A stretch of 32,000 nt of DNA. Source: Gallionellaceae bacterium. GTDB lineage: Bacteria > Pseudomonadota > Gammaproteobacteria > Burkholderiales > Gallionellaceae. The stretch lies in NCBI GenBank assembly GCA_009773615.1, contig WSYA01000013.1, positions 1 to 32,000 on the forward strand, given 5' to 3'. Of this stretch, positions 9,290 through 20,275 are shown one piece after another (the first letter of the stretch is position 1; every line of letters starts with the position of its first letter). The position numbers and the translations under genes are program-made. The notes beneath the pieces were generated by a model, which was not told the DNA's origin, searched no databases, and worked only from the letters and a program-made list of their open reading frames with translations.

Positions 9290-10777
9290 ATGTTGTCCCC
9301 CATCACCGAACAAGAATTTCAATCGCTGGCCAAGCAAGGCTATAACCGTATTCCGCTGGTCACGGAGACGTTCGCCGATCTCGATACACCGTTGTCGCTG
9401 TACCTCAAGCTTGCCAATAAACCGTTTTCCTATCTGCTGGAATCGGTGCAGGGCGGTGAGCGTTTCGGGCGCTATTCTTTCATTGGCCTGCCTGCTGACA
9501 CGCGCATCACGGTACGTGGCAGACAAGTCACGCTGACCACGCCCGCCGGTGAAGCCAGCGAGGAAGTCGCCAATCCGCTGGACTACATCGAGAGCTATCA
9601 GGCGCAATTCAACGTAGCGCCGCTGTCAGGCCTGCCGCGCTTCACCGGCGGGTTGGCGGGCTATTTCGGTTACGACACCGTGCGCTATATCGAGCCTCGT
9701 CTTGCAAAGACGCAAAAGAAAGACGTGATCGGCACGCCCGATATATTGCTCATGCTCACCGAGCAGCTCGCGGTGGTCGACAACCTTTCTGGCAAACTCA
9801 CCTTCATTGTGTATGCCGATCCCGCACAGGGCGACGCTTACAAACAGGCACGCCAGCGTCTCGATAGTTTGTTGCGCGCCTTGCGCCAGCCGGTCAAAAT
9901 CCCCGAAGCGCCGCAGTTGCGCGGCTTTGAAGCTAAATCAGAATTCGGCGAAGACGCGTTTAAACACGCGGTGGAAGCCGCCAAACAATACATTTTCGAC
10001 GGCGACATCATGCAGGTGGTGTTGGCGCAGCGCATGGTGCAACCGTTTGCGGCTTCTCCGTTGTCGCTGTATCGCGCACTGCGCAGCATCAACCCCTCGC
10101 CCTATATGTTTTATTACGACATGGGCGACCACCACGTCGTCGGTTCCTCGCCGGAAATATTGGCGCGGCTGGAAGGCGACACCGTTACTGTGCGACCCAT
10201 TGCCGGGACGCGTCCGCGCGGCAAGTCAGCGCAGCAGGATGCCGAGCTTGCGCAGGAATTGCTGGCCGATCCGAAAGAGCTGGCCGAACATCTGATGCTG
10301 ATCGACCTCGGGCGCAATGACATCGGCCGCGTCGCGCAAAACGGCACAGTGAAACTCACCGACAAAATGGTGATCGAACGCTACTCGCATGTGATGCACA
10401 TCGTCTCCAACGTCGAGGCGAAGTTGAAAGAAGGACTCAGTGCGATGGATGTGCTCAAGGCCACTTTCCCGGCGGGCACGGTGAGCGGCGCGGCCAAAGT
10501 GCGCGCGATGGAAATCATCGACGAACTGGAGCCCAGCAAGCGCGGCATCTACGCGGGTGCGGTGGGTTACCTCGCCTTCAACGGCGACATGGATGTTGCT
10601 ATCGCATTACGTACCGCTGTGGTGAAAAACGACACGCTGTACGTGCAGGCGGGCGCGGGCATCGTCGCCGACTCCGTGCCGGACAGCGAATGGATGGAAA
10701 CGCAGAATAAGGCGCGCGCGGTGCTGCGCGCTTCAGAGATGGTGCTCGACGGGTTGGATGCGAAGGTGCATCGATGA
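9290..10777 (+). CDS. trpE: Anthranilate synthase component I
   Basis: 495 aa. 'GYNRIPLV', 'LSLYLKL', 'LLESV', 'IAGTRPRG', 'GAVGYL' and 'GAGIVADS' are typical TrpE motifs. Confidence 0.95.
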
Positions 10778-11178
10778 ACCAAACCACTCACCACAGAGAC
10801 ACAGAGACACAGAGAGACCCTTTGACTGATGCCGTAATCGGCGCTGCAATTGAGGTTCATCGTGCGCTTGGTGCCGGGTTGTTGGAATCAGCTTACGAAG
10901 AATGTTTGTGTTATGAACTGGGATGCCAGAATCTGAGTTTTATTCGACAGGTCTCTCTTCCCGTTCGCTATAAGGCCATTACGCTCGACAGTGCATATCG
11001 CATGGACATCGTAGTAGAAAACCAACTTGTGCTTGAATTAAAGTCTGTGGATAAATTACTGCCTATTCACGAAGCTCAGTTATTAACCTACCTCAGACTT
11101 GGCAGTTTCAAAACGGGGTTGTTATTGAATTTCAATTCCTCCGTTCTCAAAGACGGTCTGAAAAGGATGAAGCTATGA
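10774..11178 (+). CDS. GxxExxY family protein (PD-(D/E)XK nuclease superfamily)
   Basis: 134 aa. The signature 'GLLESAY' (GxxExxY) is present, and 'MDIVV...LELKS' gives a D...ExK pattern. The ATG overlaps the trpE stop (ATGA). The N-terminus '[10 protein letters not shown]' is encoded by the left inverted repeat. Sampled 60-nt lines are markedly AT-richer (about 38-45% GC) than a neighbouring trpE line (about 65%). Confidence 0.85.
10789..10815 (+). repeat. Left 27-bp inverted repeat CACCACAGAGACACAGAGACACAGAGA (three CACAGAGA octamers at 10792..10815)
   Basis: Read directly from the sequence. It is the exact reverse complement of 11188..11214. Confidence 0.97.
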
Positions 11179-11187
11179 CTCCGTTTT

Positions 11188-11214
11188 TCTCTGTGTCTCT
11201 GTGTCTCTGTGGTG
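11188..11214 (+). repeat. Right 27-bp inverted repeat TCTCTGTGTCTCTGTGTCTCTGTGGTG
   Basis: Read directly from the sequence. It lies 9 nt (11179..11187) after the GxxExxY stop and 10 nt before the trpG ATG. It is identical to 19281..19307. Confidence 0.97.
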
Positions 11215-11224
11215 GAGGTTTTTC

Positions 11225-11794
11225 ATGCTGTTGATGATCGACAATTACGACTCCTTTACCTACAACCTCGTGCAGTATTTCGCCGAACTCGGTGCCGAGG
11301 TGGCGGTGTACCGCAACGATGAAATAACCGTGGAGCAGATCGAGAAACTGAACCCGCAGCACCTCGTGGTTTCGCCCGGCCCGTGTACGCCGAACGAGGC
11401 GGGAATATCCGTCGCCGCGATCAAACATTTCGCCGGAAAGATCCCTTTGCTCGGCGTGTGCCTCGGTCACCAGAGCATCGGCCAGGCCTTCGGCGGCAAG
11501 ATCATCCACGCCAAGACGCTGATGCATGGCAAGACCTCGCTCATCCATCACCACGGCAATAGTTTGTTTACCGGATTACCCGATCCGTTCACCGCGACGC
11601 GTTATCATTCGCTGGTGATCGAGCGCGAGTCGCTGCCGGATTGTCTGGAGATCACCGCATGGACAGACGATGGCGAGATCATGGGCGTGCGCCACAAGAC
11701 ACTGGCAGTGCATGGCGTGCAGTTCCATCCCGAGTCGATCTTGACCGAGCACGGGCATGACATGCTGCGCAACTTTTTGAACGGAGCGAAATGA
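11225..11794 (+). CDS. trpG: Anthranilate synthase component II (glutamine amidotransferase)
   Basis: '[18 protein letters not shown]', catalytic 'GVCLGHQ' and 'GVQFHPES' are present. I take the start at ATG 11225, preceded by GGAGG (11214..11218) that abuts the right repeat. The track start at 11201 lies inside the repeat. Confidence 0.93.
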
Positions 11795-17341: not shown

Positions 17342-18438
17342 CGCGCGGCCTTTTCGTGCGAGATGCGGTAGTTGCGCACGGCTTCAAGGCTGCCGCTGAT
17401 GTCGGGAAGCTCGATGTTGATGTTGGATGCGGCGAGTTTCTGCAATGTCGCCTGCGCCTGCGCGCCTTCTTTGGCGCGCGTGTCGAAATAGATTCCTGTC
17501 CACTCTTGCGCGGTTTTCAGGTCGCGTTTGTAGCTCACTTCGTCGTGCGACAACAGGGCCAGTCTGGCGGAGAGCAGGCGTATCTTCAGGTTCTCTCTGA
17601 GGAAGAAAGTCTGCGTCGGCGACAGCAAAGGTAACTCGCGTTTTTGCGTGTTTTCGATGCGCACCAACTGTTTCACCTCAAACCATAATTCGCGCCAGAA
17701 CTTGTTCCATGCGTTTTCCGCGATGACGGGTGTGGGCAGCGGCTTAACCTCTTGTGTCCGTATGTCTTGCGATAGAGGTAGGGTATCGACGGCTGCGACC
17801 AGACTGTCGATACGCATATTGATGCCTGCCGCGTCGATATTGGGCAGCGCGCGCAATTTGTCGATGTCCTGATTGATAGATTTGCGTAGGCCACCCAATG
17901 TCGGGCGATCCAGACGCTGCAAACGGCTGTCGGCGTGCTGCATGGCAATCAGTGCGGCTTTTACGTTGGCGGAGAGTTGCAACTGCTGTCCTGCAATCAT
18001 CAGCATTTGTTCGACTTCGGCGAGCGCGGTCTGGTCGCGGCTGCTCGACATTTCCTGATACAGCGTATCCAGCGCGGCGCGCTGATTTTGCGCCTCGGCA
18101 TATTTGCTTTCCAGCAGACTGAGCTTGCCGCCGAGTTCGCGCACCACTTCCTGATTTTGGGTGACCAAGGTTTGATTGGCTTTGTTTGTGCCATCCATTT
18201 CCGTCAGCCGTTTGGCCAGTTCCTGCTGCACTTGATTGATCTGGTAATGCGCATCGAACCACTGCCACACAAAGATCACCACCAATACGGCGAGCGTCAT
18301 CTGCGTGAGGTTCAGATGCGAGATCAGATTCACCAAAGGGTTGTGGCCGGGAGTGCGCAGCATGGCGCGAAACGTGCCCGAATTCGTTCCGGTTTTGTTC
18401 CCGGCGGGTTGCTGATGAGACTGTGGTTGCTCGCTCAT
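17338..18438 (-). CDS. hemX: HemX-like membrane protein (annotated in databases as putative uroporphyrinogen-III C-methyltransferase)
   Basis: An N-terminal transmembrane helix 'MTLAVLVVIFVWQWF' is followed by a long Q/L-rich coiled coil. It sits between hemD and hemY. I prefer ATG 18438 (MSEQPQ...), which gives an ATGA overlap with the hemD stop. Confidence 0.78.
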   Translation of the reverse strand: MSEQPQSHQQPAGNKTGTNSGTFRAMLRTPGHNPLVNLISHLNLTQMTLAVLVVIFVWQWFDAHYQINQVQQELAKRLTEMDGTNKANQTLVTQNQEVVRELGGKLSLLESKYAEAQNQRAALDTLYQEMSSSRDQTALAEVEQMLMIAGQQLQLSANVKAALIAMQHADSRLQRLDRPTLGGLRKSINQDIDKLRALPNIDAAGINMRIDSLVAAVDTLPLSQDIRTQEVKPLPTPVIAENAWNKFWRELWFEVKQLVRIENTQKRELPLLSPTQTFFLRENLKIRLLSARLALLSHDEVSYKRDLKTAQEWTGIYFDTRAKEGAQAQATLQKLAASNINIELPDISGSLEAVRNYRISHEKAAR

Positions 18439-19217
18439 AAATGTTTTCCGATACAAGATTTAGCTTTTGACCATGCTACCAAACCGGACACGACTCCGTC
18501 ATCCCCGCTCGTCGTCTGTACAACTTTTCGCCAGCCTTGTTGTTCGGCTGCCGCCGCGATGCGGGCGTGCGGCACAAATAGTGTTACGTCCGCTATCTGC
18601 TTTTTCCCGGCCTCGTCGAACATCTCCCACAGATGAGCCAGCGCTTCGCTGCTGCTCAATGTGATGGCGTCTGCGCGGCTATTCAACAGCACGCCGATGT
18701 TCTGCGGTGTTCTGCTGCGCTGATAACAGGCGACATATTCCACGTTAGCGCCGCGCGCTTTGAGCGTGTCGCCCAATAGCTCGCGCCCCCCGTCGCCGCG
18801 AAAAATTGCGACTTTCCATCCGCGCACGTTTTGCAATTGCGGCAACACCAGCAAGGCTTCGCTGTCTGAGCGGCCTTGCGGTGCAATGACATCTTGTATG
18901 CCCGCATCGCGCAATGCTTTGGCGCTGCCTTGTCCCACGGTGGCGATGCGCAGCCCAGAGGGGACGCCGCCTGCCGCTGCAATTTCAGCCATGCCGTAAC
19001 GCACCGCATTGGGGCTGATGAAAATGGCGAGGTCGAATCCGGGCAGGCGGGCGATCAGGTTGCGCAAAGCGTGTGTGTCGGCCGGCGGACTGATATCGAG
19101 CAGCGGAAACAATACCGCGTTGCCGCCCAGCTGTTCTATGAGCTGCTGTAACTGGCCCGCCTGCTCGCGCGGGCGGGTGACCACGATGCTGAGTCCGGCA
19201 AGCGGCAACGATTCCAT
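18435..19217 (-). CDS. hemD: Uroporphyrinogen-III synthase
   Basis: 260 aa. The HemD-like pattern 'GLSIVVTRP..Q...L' appears with its repeat in the second half. It sits between hemC and hemX. Confidence 0.82.
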   Translation of the reverse strand: MESLPLAGLSIVVTRPREQAGQLQQLIEQLGGNAVLFPLLDISPPADTHALRNLIARLPGFDLAIFISPNAVRYGMAEIAAAGGVPSGLRIATVGQGSAKALRDAGIQDVIAPQGRSDSEALLVLPQLQNVRGWKVAIFRGDGGRELLGDTLKARGANVEYVACYQRSRTPQNIGVLLNSRADAITLSSSEALAHLWEMFDEAGKKQIADVTLFVPHARIAAAAEQQGWRKVVQTTSGDDGVVSGLVAWSKAKSCIGKHL

Positions 19218-19231
19218 TCAAGGCAAAACCT

Positions 19232-19307
19232 ACCACAGAGACACAGAGACACAGAGGAAAAACAAAACCTCAAAAGGTTTTCTCTGTGTCTCTGTGTCTC
19301 TGTGGTG
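19232..19307. repeat. 76-nt palindromic element: the same CACAGAGA-octamer inverted repeats as the trp cassette, but with only a 24-nt spacer
   Basis: The left arm 19232..19256 matches 25 of the 27 nt of the trp left arm. The right arm 19281..19307 is identical to 11188..11214. The spacer contains its own small hairpin (aaaacc/ggtttt). It lies in the hemC-hemD intercistronic gap. Confidence 0.95.
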
Positions 19308-19324: not shown

Positions 19325-20275
19325 TCATAAAGACAGTGCGGCAAGGATATCGGCTGCGCCTTGCTTGAGCAAAGCCTCGGCCACGGCGTCGCCGAGCGCT
19401 TCCGGCGCGGCGATACTGCCGACCTGCTCGGCGCGCAGCATTTTGCTGCCATCGGGGCTGGCGACAAAACCGCGCATGCGCAGTTTGTCGCCCTGTACTT
19501 CCGCGAAGCCGCCCAGCGGTACCTGGCAGCTGCCCGCCAATGCGCGGCTCATGGCGCGTTCGGCGAACACGCAGGCGGCGGTTTCCGCATCGTGCAGCGG
19601 GCGCAGCAAAATTTCCAGATCGGGCCGGTCAGCGCGTGTTTCGATGCCCAGAGCGCCTTGTCCCACGGCGGGCAGGCTGTCTTCGCTGGAGATGAACGCG
19701 CGGATGCGCTCGCCCAGGCCGAGGCGCTTCAAGCCTGCGGCGGCCAGAATGATCGCGGCATATTGGCCTTCATCCAGCTTGCGCAAGCGCGTTTGCACGT
19801 TGCCGCGCAACGGCTCGATTTTCAAATGCGGGAAGCGCGCGCGCAACTGGCTTTCGCGGCGCAGGCTGGAAGTGCCGACCACGCTGCCCGCAGGCAAGGC
19901 TTCCAGATGGGCATGATGGTTGGAAACGAAGGCGTCGCGCGGATCTTCGCGTTTGCCGATGCAGGCCAGCACAAAGCCTTCGGGCAAATGCATCGGCACG
20001 TCTTTCAGGGAATGCACGGCGATATCGGCGCTGCCGTTCTCCAGTGCGGTTTCTAACTCCTTGACGAACAAACCTTTGCCGCCGATCTTGGAAAGCGTCA
20101 CGTCGAGTATTTGGTCGCCCTGTGTCGTCATGCCCAATATACTCACCTCGGTTTGTGGATATAATGCGCGCAGTCGATCCCTGATGTGTTCAGCCTGCCA
20201 CATTGCCAATGCGCTTTCGCGCGATGCGATGACCAGTTTTTTGGGTGCGGGTGTCGTCTGGGATGCCTGATTCAT
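19325..20275 (-). CDS. hemC: Hydroxymethylbilane synthase (porphobilinogen deaminase)
   Basis: 316 aa. '[15 protein letters not shown]', 'TTQGDQILD', '[11 protein letters not shown]' and the cofactor Cys in '[11 protein letters not shown]' are present. Confidence 0.94.

Follow-up and report, generated by a model that had tools for sequence, protein, structure and literature searches.

A GxxExxY nuclease gene between tandem-octamer inverted arms in a betaproteobacterial trp operon, and gene-less hairpins of the same arm type in many bacterial phyla

The trp operon of a Gallionellaceae bacterium (contig WSYA01000013.1, assembly GCA_009773615.1) carries a small additional gene between trpE and trpG, and this gene is enclosed by two complementary arms built of tandem octamers. 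The stretch of DNA analysed here, referred to as the window, comprises positions 1 to 32,000 of the forward strand of this contig. The gene and its arms, together called the cassette, measure about 440 bp. The features of the trpE|trpG junction are as follows.

9290-10777, forward strand: trpE, anthranilate synthase component I, the upstream host gene (PF00425/PF04715; TIGR00564, E 3.4e-168)
10774-11178, forward strand: GxxExxY / PDDEXK_3 gene of 134 amino acids (list of open reading frames, PF13366, TIGR04256)
10781-10788, no strand: outer extension of the left arm, AAACCACT (flank comparison across loci, pairing in the RNA fold)
10789-10815, no strand: left arm, CAC followed by three tandem CACAGAGA octamers, the octamers at 10792-10815 (repeat search, Tandem Repeats Finder)
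11188-11214, no strand: right arm, three tandem TCTCTGTG octamers followed by GTG (exact reverse complement of the left arm)
11214-11223, forward strand: outer extension of the right arm, which is the Shine-Dalgarno region of trpG (GGAGG at 11214-11218, T5 at 11219-11223)
11225-11794, forward strand: trpG, anthranilate synthase component II, the downstream host gene (PF00117, E 1.2e-65; TIGR00566)

The arms are 27 nt long and 100% complementary, with 372 nt between them, and Tandem Repeats Finder assigns to each a period of 8 and 3.0 copies, which agrees with the perfect inverted repeat of three octamers described in the first-pass annotation of this DNA. Four matches to the arm 24-mer are found in the window, against 0.00 in shuffled versions of it. 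The general form of an arm can be written as (TT)CAC followed by three tandem octamers C-R-C-N-G-A-G-N, the window unit being CACAGAGA. The weaker similarity noticed earlier on the outer side of both arms was confirmed: in the RNA fold, GGTTT at 11217-11221 is the pairing partner of AAACC at 10781-10785, and the outer extensions fit a betaproteobacterial consensus, AAAACCnnTCAC on the left and GTGAnnGGTTTT at the right end of other copies. In betaproteobacterial copies an A-tract and a T-tract flank the stem. The T5 run behind the stem, previously linked to a possible modulation of trpG expression, belongs to this outer inverted repeat and gives no terminator tail by scan.

The cassette is co-directional with both of its neighbours and closely fitted to them. 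The TGA stop of trpE overlaps the cassette ATG (ATGA, 10774-10777), the ATG of trpG begins 10 nt past the end of the right arm, and the Shine-Dalgarno sequence of trpG is supplied by the outer repeat of the cassette itself, so that the proposed coupling to the upstream stop and ribosome-binding site for the downstream gene were both recovered. The body of the open reading frame (ORF) is AT-rich, with a GC fraction of 0.405-0.49; the flanks, at 0.56-0.615, lie somewhat below the 65% claimed earlier. The N-terminus is indeed encoded by the repeat, as had been observed. It does not behave as a functional part of the protein, since residues 1-12 are disordered in the AlphaFold2 model, with a predicted local distance difference test score (pLDDT) below 50, and the start varies between lineages, the ORF beginning 20-250 nt inside the arm in others. 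The PF13366 gene is the sole ORF of the cassette, which is in line with the earlier remark that no recognised transposase is present.

A second element with the same arm type lies between hemC and hemD at 19232-19306 of the window. It contains no gene and is called an empty hairpin below.

19232-19260, no strand: left arm of the empty hairpin, ACCACAGAGACACAGAGACACAGAGGAAA (repeat comparison)
19278-19306, no strand: right arm of the empty hairpin (gap of 17 nt to the left arm)
19325-20275, reverse strand: hemC, hydroxymethylbilane synthase (stop 18 nt from the empty hairpin)
18435-19217, reverse strand: hemD, uroporphyrinogen-III synthase, HEM4

Its arms are 29 nt long with a gap of 17 nt, and as single-stranded DNA it folds at -37.8 kcal/mol (z-score -12.4). 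Derivation of this hairpin by deletion from the filled copy of the window was considered and rejected, its loop sharing only a T-run with the interior of the cassette. In relatives whose HemC is 98%, 93% or 89% identical, hemC and hemD overlap by 8 nt or lie 12 nt apart and no hairpin is present. The hairpin is thus missing in relatives as close as 98%, indicating that the insertion at hemC|hemD is recent. Consensus scans at the two window hairpins returned no sigma-70-like promoter and no canonical intrinsic terminator, the T-run pairing with an upstream A-run, and a promoter or terminator reading of these hairpins was therefore rejected. A known RNA family was rejected as well: Rfam gave no family at gathering score in the window, and eight hairpin loci yielded nothing beyond sub-threshold miRNA-precursor noise.

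The trpE|trpG junction was compared among relatives. Where TrpG is 90-94% identical, as in Sideroxydans sp. CL21 and other relatives, no hairpin is present and 9-12 nt separate the stop of trpE from the ATG of trpG, for example in the empty junction CATCGCTAGGAGGAACGAACATG. Both window copies are insertions relative to close relatives, and the foreign nature of the cassette is thereby borne out. Among the fetched loci, which carry L numbers here, the junction is filled in the window, L121, L228-L233, L070 and L027 and empty in L202-L213. In the corresponding trp regions of genomes that lack the cassette, 57 kb of sequence hold 0 arms, and the cassette-bearing regions have extra hairpins. At L201 (2300-2510; TrpG 94% identical), it is an opposite-strand CBS-domain gene that precedes trpG, in the place of trpE, and the trp cluster has therefore been rearranged in that lineage.

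The trpE|trpG copy did not arrive recently. Cassette orthologues with 65-87% identity occupy the same junction in L121, L228, L229, L230, L233, L070 and L027, which derive from Gallionellaceae, Rhodocyclaceae and other betaproteobacterial metagenome-assembled genomes (MAGs). At L070 the cargo is 66% and TrpE 67% identical to those of the window, the two divergences being roughly parallel. It is likely from these comparisons that the trpE-trpG copy is an old, mostly vertically inherited resident in several betaproteobacterial lineages. Among the trp orthologues, identity amounts to 91-100% in the arms and to 60-77% in the interior DNA, so that conservation is much stronger in the arms than in the cargo. 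L228 has identical 27-nt arms at an identical 372-nt spacing, and the arms of L233 differ by one compensatory change (CACCGAG / CTCGGTG). The protein is conserved too. Its dN/dS against the trp-operon orthologues is 0.05-0.07 where computable, with synonymous sites saturated (pS 0.65-0.98), and it is under strong purifying selection.

Further elements are found in the same operons. L228 carries an empty CACAGAG hairpin at trpG|trpD. The trp operon of L233 (4749-5212 and 3512-3668) holds three elements: its trpE|trpG junction has the CACAGAG cassette, trpG|trpD an empty CGCGGAG/CGCCGAG hairpin, and trpD|trpC a second GxxExxY cassette with CACGGAG arms of 9-nt period. In L121, the closest metagenomic orthologue (TrpE 88%, TrpG 93%), an insertion of about 56 nt at about 2440-2500 splits the right arm, giving CTCTGTGTCTCTG | ATGAAACAACTAGCC...GCTTAT | GTGTCTCTGTGG.

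The product of the cassette gene is a member of the GxxExxY family, matching PF13366 (PDDEXK_3; E 1.1e-41, 142.2 bits against a cut-off of 22) and TIGR04256 (E 1.1e-42, 145.1 bits against a cut-off of 35), and the Pfam domain spans residues 17-132 (about 10822-11169). PF13366 was the only match in a Pfam scan of the protein, and no Y1 transposase family was returned. The protein is identical to the database entry 'MAG hypothetical protein FD173_755'. Two alignments, of 9 and of 46 sequences, show no variation at E38 (within GLLESAY), D78, E88 and K90, confirming the intact D...ExK pattern noted from the sequence and its retention across homologues. The AlphaFold2 model (pLDDT 87.6) shows a PD-(D/E)XK core of alpha-beta-beta-beta-alpha-beta order. 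Foldseek placed Cas4 SSO0001 (4ic1) first, with E 4.9e-4, then lambda exonuclease, 6m9k and 3syy, at template modelling scores of 0.4-0.5; the catalytic domain of I-Bth0305I was a weak fold match. A sequence search of the PDB gave nothing meaningful (top match RelE, E 0.52).

The family is large, with 20,291 clusters at 50% identity (E <=0.001). In a published fold classification, PF13366 is described as of unknown function and with 'multiple transfers' (PMC3424549). Some members (P0121-P0132 and others) are 266-295 amino acids long and contain two GxxExxY domains in tandem, and these fusions hint that the single-domain protein may work as a dimer. Membership of a known anti-phage defence or phage family was also considered and rejected: PADLOC gave weak Cas4 matches (E 0.004-0.01), PHROGs gave no match for the window protein, and a tblastn search of 50,697 records of cultured phages gave no GxxExxY homologue.

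To follow the arms beyond the window, one genome per species was scanned for the arm 23-mer CACAGAGACACAGAGACACAGAG, a total of 596 billion bases with at least 120 matching stretches. The 23-mer occurs at no fewer than these 120 loci in many phyla, compared with a calculated chance expectation of about 0.02, and the repeat is thus present, with and without GxxExxY cargo, both elsewhere in the window and in other genomes, as the first-pass annotation had asked. Among the matches listed, the hosts include Acidobacteriota, Planctomycetota, Gemmatimonadota, Verrucomicrobiota, Alpha- and Betaproteobacteria, and further Chlamydiae, Cloacimonadota, Spirochaetota, Bacteroidota and one cyanobacterium. 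In addition, CACAGAG arms were met on long contigs of two MAGs labelled as archaeal (L044, Methanocellaceae; L051, Methanotrichaceae), which may reflect either inter-domain spread or a binning error. The runs are nearly always 23-24 nt long, equal to three units, and a few loci have longer runs, up to 64 nt. With arms defined by a regular expression of three C-R-[CGT]-N-[GA]-A-[GA] units spaced 1-3 nt apart, 547 matches were counted in 1.15 Mb of fetched loci versus 2 in shuffles.

Among the at least 120 arms listed, 77 have a partner in hairpin orientation. The 169 adjacent arm pairs are bimodal in loop size, the loops being either short or about 370-450 nt long, with 96 loops of <=150 nt, 54 of 351-450 nt and 10 of 451-650 nt. 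A GxxExxY ORF was detected by hidden Markov model (HMM) in at least 57 of 73 long loops, and no second protein family recurs in these 73. The cargo of L009, L027 and L067 was missed by the HMM because the longest frame there is antisense, and the long loops of L022, L039, L083 and L103 contain nested palindromes only. In the set seeded by arms, which is unbiased for cargo, 79 short hairpins stand against 12 of gene size, so that about 1 in 8 is filled; among the matches listed, filled loci number 10 of 120.

The short-loop hairpins are placed non-randomly. A gene end lies within 45 nt of 77% of 69 such hairpins, versus about 20% for random positions, and the median distance is about 14 nt past the stop. 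By context, 30% lie between convergent genes, 39% between co-directional genes and 1% between divergent genes. Gene-less and gene-bearing copies also occur close together. In Gemmatirosa (74% GC), five hairpins are found in 40 kb, the exact arm found beside the gene is met again in a hairpin at a distance of 8 kb, and CACAGAG/CACGGAG and CGCAGAG hairpins are carried together. At L190 the loop of an empty copy consists of the left-inner and right-inner ends of the neighbouring full copy, a relation such as would be expected of a miniature inverted-repeat transposable element (MITE) and its parent. The gene stands between complete hairpins at L193, L222/L241, L153 and L189, and arrays of hairpins adjoin it at L162, L190 and L193. 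Inverted repeats of other short units (CACGGAT, CACGAAG) as well as nested palindromes lie in or beside CACAGAG hairpins at L039, L041, L074, L022 and L103, and the arrangement suggests that the hairpin loops may themselves serve as insertion sites for further small elements.

The association was also approached from the protein. A profile built from nine GxxExxY proteins and run against metagenomes returned at least 594 relatives, of which the best 80 were kept. Among the 62 genes far enough from a contig end, canonical arms are present on both sides of 53, on one side of 7 and on neither side of 2. The association of gene and arms is nearly exclusive in both directions. The unit types comprise CACAGAG, CACGGAG, CGCAGAG, CGCCGAG, CGCGGAG, CACGAAG, CGCAAAG and CAGTGAG. 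For 36 of 44 genes the position is between the end of one same-strand gene and the start of another, and one faces a convergent gene end. Annotated plasmid and chromid records agree, with the gene co-directional with both neighbours in 6 of 6, for instance radA-GxxExxY-FAD protein in Bacteroides finegoldii and fabD-GxxExxY-fabG in Sphingomonas. Gene-bearing copies are co-directional between two host genes and therefore transcribed with the operon. Like the gene-less ones they are placed within a few nucleotides of a preceding stop codon; their start adjoins that stop, and a Shine-Dalgarno sequence for the following gene comes from the outer repeat.

Distant homologues (35-56% identical) from Bacteroides, Bernardetia and Treponema retain inverted arms of tandem units, with other unit sequences. 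The Bacteroides arm is TTCACCACAGAGGACGCAGAGGACACGGAG with its complement, and Treponema has one pair of CACGGAT type. On the viral contigs L215 and L217-L219 (IMG/VR), where the proteins are 35-41% identical, the gene is accompanied by inverted repeats of 47-80 nt made of tandem AT-rich units of 12-13 nt (TTTTACTTAAAA); the left arm of L217 is tandemly duplicated. In L067 and L080 (Reyranellaceae / alphaproteobacterial MAGs) a cassette is placed between a carA-like (..HYLFDRFVDMIAK) and a carB-like (MPKRTDI) gene, both named from their termini. The carA|carB-like and the trpE|trpG junction each lie between the two subunits of a glutamine-amidotransferase enzyme.

The reading preferred for the observed anatomy, cross-phylum distribution, gene-arm association, insertion polymorphism, placement after stops, co-orientation and selection on protein and arms is that of a widespread, operon-compatible selfish cassette with gene-less hairpin derivatives and a nuclease cognate to the arms, for which the chances are put slightly above even. 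According to this proposal, the arms would enclose a single promoter-less gene for a GxxExxY PD-(D/E)XK nuclease of about 125 amino acids, transcribed with the operon into which it has settled. The nuclease would most likely recognise the repeated units, or the DNA hairpin or cruciform formed by them, and cut there, and cutting would spread or maintain full copies together with empty ones served in trans. Mobility provided by the protein itself, one of the options of the first-pass annotation, would fit the near-exclusive association of gene and arms. The logic would be that of repetitive extragenic palindromic (REP) sequences and their REP-associated tyrosine transposases (RAYTs), whose hairpin doublets are known as REPINs, or of an autonomous element and its MITEs, with a PD-(D/E)XK enzyme replacing the tyrosine HUH transposase. 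A wider proposal is offered more tentatively, with chances somewhat short of even: GxxExxY (PF13366) may constitute a new class of repeat-associated nucleases and a second, independently evolved replicator of REPIN/RAYT type in many phyla, possibly including archaea. In such a class, each nuclease would be cognate to a hairpin with arms of three tandem short units and would copy or move its own cassette and gene-less hairpins to places just after stop codons, by PD-(D/E)XK chemistry and in a form that leaves the occupied operons intact.

Several observations weigh against the selfish-cassette reading. No target-site duplication or excision footprint is readable when filled and empty sites are compared at trpE|trpG or hemC|hemD, and the hemC|hemD junction is remodelled relative to empty sites. 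Descent of the trp copy seems to have been vertical over long periods, and active mobility does not call for this. Nuclease and arms are linked by association, and the nearest solved folds, Cas4 SSO0001 and lambda exonuclease, are generic PD-(D/E)XK nucleases. Unit type does not track protein identity, which is 0.588 within the same type and 0.575 between different types, and a simple co-evolving specificity of protein and site is therefore not seen; unit type is not explained by the GC content of the flanks either. Direct repeats of about 26-70 nt flank the gene in L224 (a Fusobacteria plasmid) and L225 (Prevotella nigrescens), whose proteins are 38-39% identical, suggesting that the cassette is organised differently in these lineages, and L223 has a degenerate arm.

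Among the alternatives, an RNA-level element, as raised in the first-pass annotation, fares best, and it is considered rather unlikely. Here a stem of 27 bp or more in the mRNA would loop out the ORF and be cut by RNase III, or by the GxxExxY protein acting as an RNA endonuclease; the flanking cistrons would thereby become independent in stability or translation, and expression of the cassette would be controlled. The hairpin would act mainly after transcription, in the manner of 23S rRNA intervening sequences or Correia elements, and its spread as DNA would have another cause. Long, perfectly paired double-stranded RNA is cleaved by RNase III, and Correia repeats are processed in this way. 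Folding of 10760-11240 as RNA predicts a long-range stem in both the minimum free energy and the centroid structure (z-score -4.1), and the predicted stem covers the cassette start codon and the Shine-Dalgarno sequence and ATG of trpG. The nearly constant co-direction of the gene, the missing promoter-like site and the position of hairpins right after stops also speak for such a role. Nevertheless, the arms do not bear the marks of a purely sense-RNA stem. When 69 elements were oriented by the direction of their ORF, the mismatches between arms comprised 52 G.U and 44 A.C, with no sense-strand bias, and 7 elements are perfect. Register-specific covariation was not found, the likeness of units being 0.90-0.955 when paired, 0.91-0.94 when unpaired and 0.93-0.94 within an arm, and the 1-2-nt spacers agree between arms 38-50% of the time. 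All six units are equally alike and the spacers diverge; it is therefore the unit motif that is conserved in triple inverted form, and not register-specific pairs. Recognition of units or concerted copying fits these patterns better than a purely structural RNA stem, and effects at the RNA level may occur besides. Moreover, the 30% of empty hairpins between convergent genes are not accounted for, and both the nuclease-only cargo and the spread of copies are left unexplained. The RNA-level reading and that of a selfish cassette are compatible with each other.

A free-standing endonuclease of homing type is improbable. Such an enzyme would cut alleles or hairpins that lack the gene, and repair of the break would bring in a copy of the gene, homology being provided by either the arms or the conserved genes on both sides. 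The empty hairpins would be its targets or remnants and not elements that it mobilises. PD-(D/E)XK homing endonucleases exist, for example I-Ssp6803I, and the I-Bth0305I catalytic domain is among the weak fold matches. Occupation of trpE|trpG in distant betaproteobacteria and its vacancy in close relatives recall the sporadic presence typical of homing genes, and the catalytic residues are intact and under selection. However, trpE|trpG has been seen in two states, with nothing or with arms and gene, and never with an empty hairpin; a pre-existing hairpin was therefore not the entry point of the gene there. At hemC|hemD the empty hairpin is a recent insertion in its own right, indicating that hairpins move without the gene, and the parallel divergence of cargo and TrpE is that of vertical descent.

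Domestication as a host module is given a lower probability still. The hairpins would then be REP-like operon punctuation, acting as 3'-end stabilisers, attenuators or bidirectional terminators, and the nuclease would be a vertically inherited single-copy caretaker, as proposed for RAYTs, so that the whole would be a regulatory module and not a parasite. This agrees with the long retention at one locus with dN/dS of about 0.05, with the preference for gene 3' ends and the 1% in divergent regions, with the A-tract and T-tract around the betaproteobacterial stem, and with the genomes in which whole hairpins flank the gene. Against it, many close relatives lack both gene and hairpins, neither window site has a canonical terminator by scan, near-identical arms across phyla point to horizontal spread, and termination within trpE-trpG or hemC-hemD would be harmful. 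Finally, a chance association, in which slippage-prone octamer microsatellites or generic palindromes lie next to the gene by accident, can for practical purposes be set aside: the arms do consist of tandem short units and a few runs are longer, up to 64 nt, yet runs of nearly always exactly three units, the excess of the 23-mer and of arms over expectation and shuffles, the inverted pairing, the bimodal loops with a single cargo family and the arm counts around protein-seeded genes are incompatible with accident.

Returning to the selfish cassette, the closest known logic would be that of REP/RAYT. In both, a short repeat stands in inverted copies on either side of a small nuclease gene, gene-less hairpin doublets of the same repeat occur at gene 3' ends and inside operons, hairpins cluster by the gene (L162, L190, L193), inheritance at a fixed locus is long and mostly vertical with sporadic absence, and in some genomes (L193, Gemmatirosa) the gene stands between whole hairpins. 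There are also differences. The enzyme here is a PD-(D/E)XK protein of about 125 amino acids and not a Y1 HUH transposase, which is a defining feature of REP/RAYT. An arm consists of three tandem octamers, whereas a REP is a single imperfect palindrome with a GTAG head; no GT[AG]G head is found here, the arms starting with (TT)CAC-CACAGAG and ending with CTCTGTG-GTG(AA). The gene lies mostly inside the hairpin loop, near-identical arms are shared by many phyla, and several arm types occur per genome.

Other mobile elements share part of this organisation. MITEs such as the Correia/NEMIS elements of Neisseria are likewise short, bounded by inverted repeats, situated beside genes, co-transcribed and predicted to form long RNA stems, and Correia stems are substrates of RNase III. 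The excess of empty over full copies and the L190 loop made of the inner ends of a full copy are further likenesses. MITEs and insertion sequences (IS) differ from the present elements, in which no known transposase family (DDE, HUH, serine or tyrosine recombinase) is present and no clear target-site duplication was readable; from MITEs the present elements are further distinguished by a cargo of one tiny nuclease gene, arms of tandem units and a co-oriented placement after stop codons. IS200/IS605 elements resemble the cassette in a very small enzyme (about 130-150 amino acids) and structured DNA ends, and they make no target-site duplication, of which no clear one was readable at the window insertions either. 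They differ in fold and chemistry and in having two different hairpins as ends, not one inverted repeat spanning the element.

Three more systems can be compared. The intervening sequences of 23S rRNA also contain a small ORF looped out by a long stem of flanking repeats, a stem that is predicted here; the present element lies outside rRNA, and its ORF belongs to another family. ORFs of intervening sequences encode four-helix-bundle proteins (PF05635). PD-(D/E)XK homing endonucleases such as I-Ssp6803I share the small nuclease gene that occurs sporadically at one conserved junction; homing genes have neither hairpin arms nor dispersed gene-less copies, and a sequence relationship is not detectable. 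With Cas4 and lambda exonuclease the PD-(D/E)XK core is common. The similarity is far below family level, the window protein is half their size and lacks Fe-S cysteines and extra domains, and there is no CRISPR context as for Cas4.

The hairpin family is apparently undescribed. In the searchable literature, a scope which leaves aside subscription-only papers and database comment fields, no account of repeats around GxxExxY genes was found, the arm strings appear in no paper, and GxxExxY/PF13366 is represented by the fold classification and incidental mentions. No PD-(D/E)XK counterpart was found in the literature on REPIN/RAYT and MITEs. The present data provide a large family of unknown function (PF13366 / TIGR04256) with a concrete candidate substrate, namely its own flanking arms. 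If the nuclease does mobilise the hairpins, this would be a second system with REP/RAYT logic, based on unrelated chemistry and spread far more widely than RAYTs, and it would explain the CACAGAG, CACGGAG and CGCAGAG repeats at gene junctions of Acidobacteriota, Planctomycetota, Gemmatimonadota, Proteobacteria and Bacteroidota. Such junction repeats get translated into spurious ORF ends. The cassette would exemplify a parasitism of minimal harm, as it has no promoter of its own, travels on the transcripts of operons, has its start coupled to the stop of the preceding gene and provides the next gene with a Shine-Dalgarno sequence. In essential operons (trp, hem, car, fab) the processing of mRNA may be influenced by the hairpins, and the element could serve as a compact, operon-safe insertion tool.

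One of the loci with a filled trpE|trpG junction shows additional peculiarities of its trp region. At L230 (2941-5393), trpG and trpD are fused into one gene with a 537-amino-acid product, and genes for a YoeB toxin and for a toxin-antitoxin pair of MNT/HepT-like type follow the operon.

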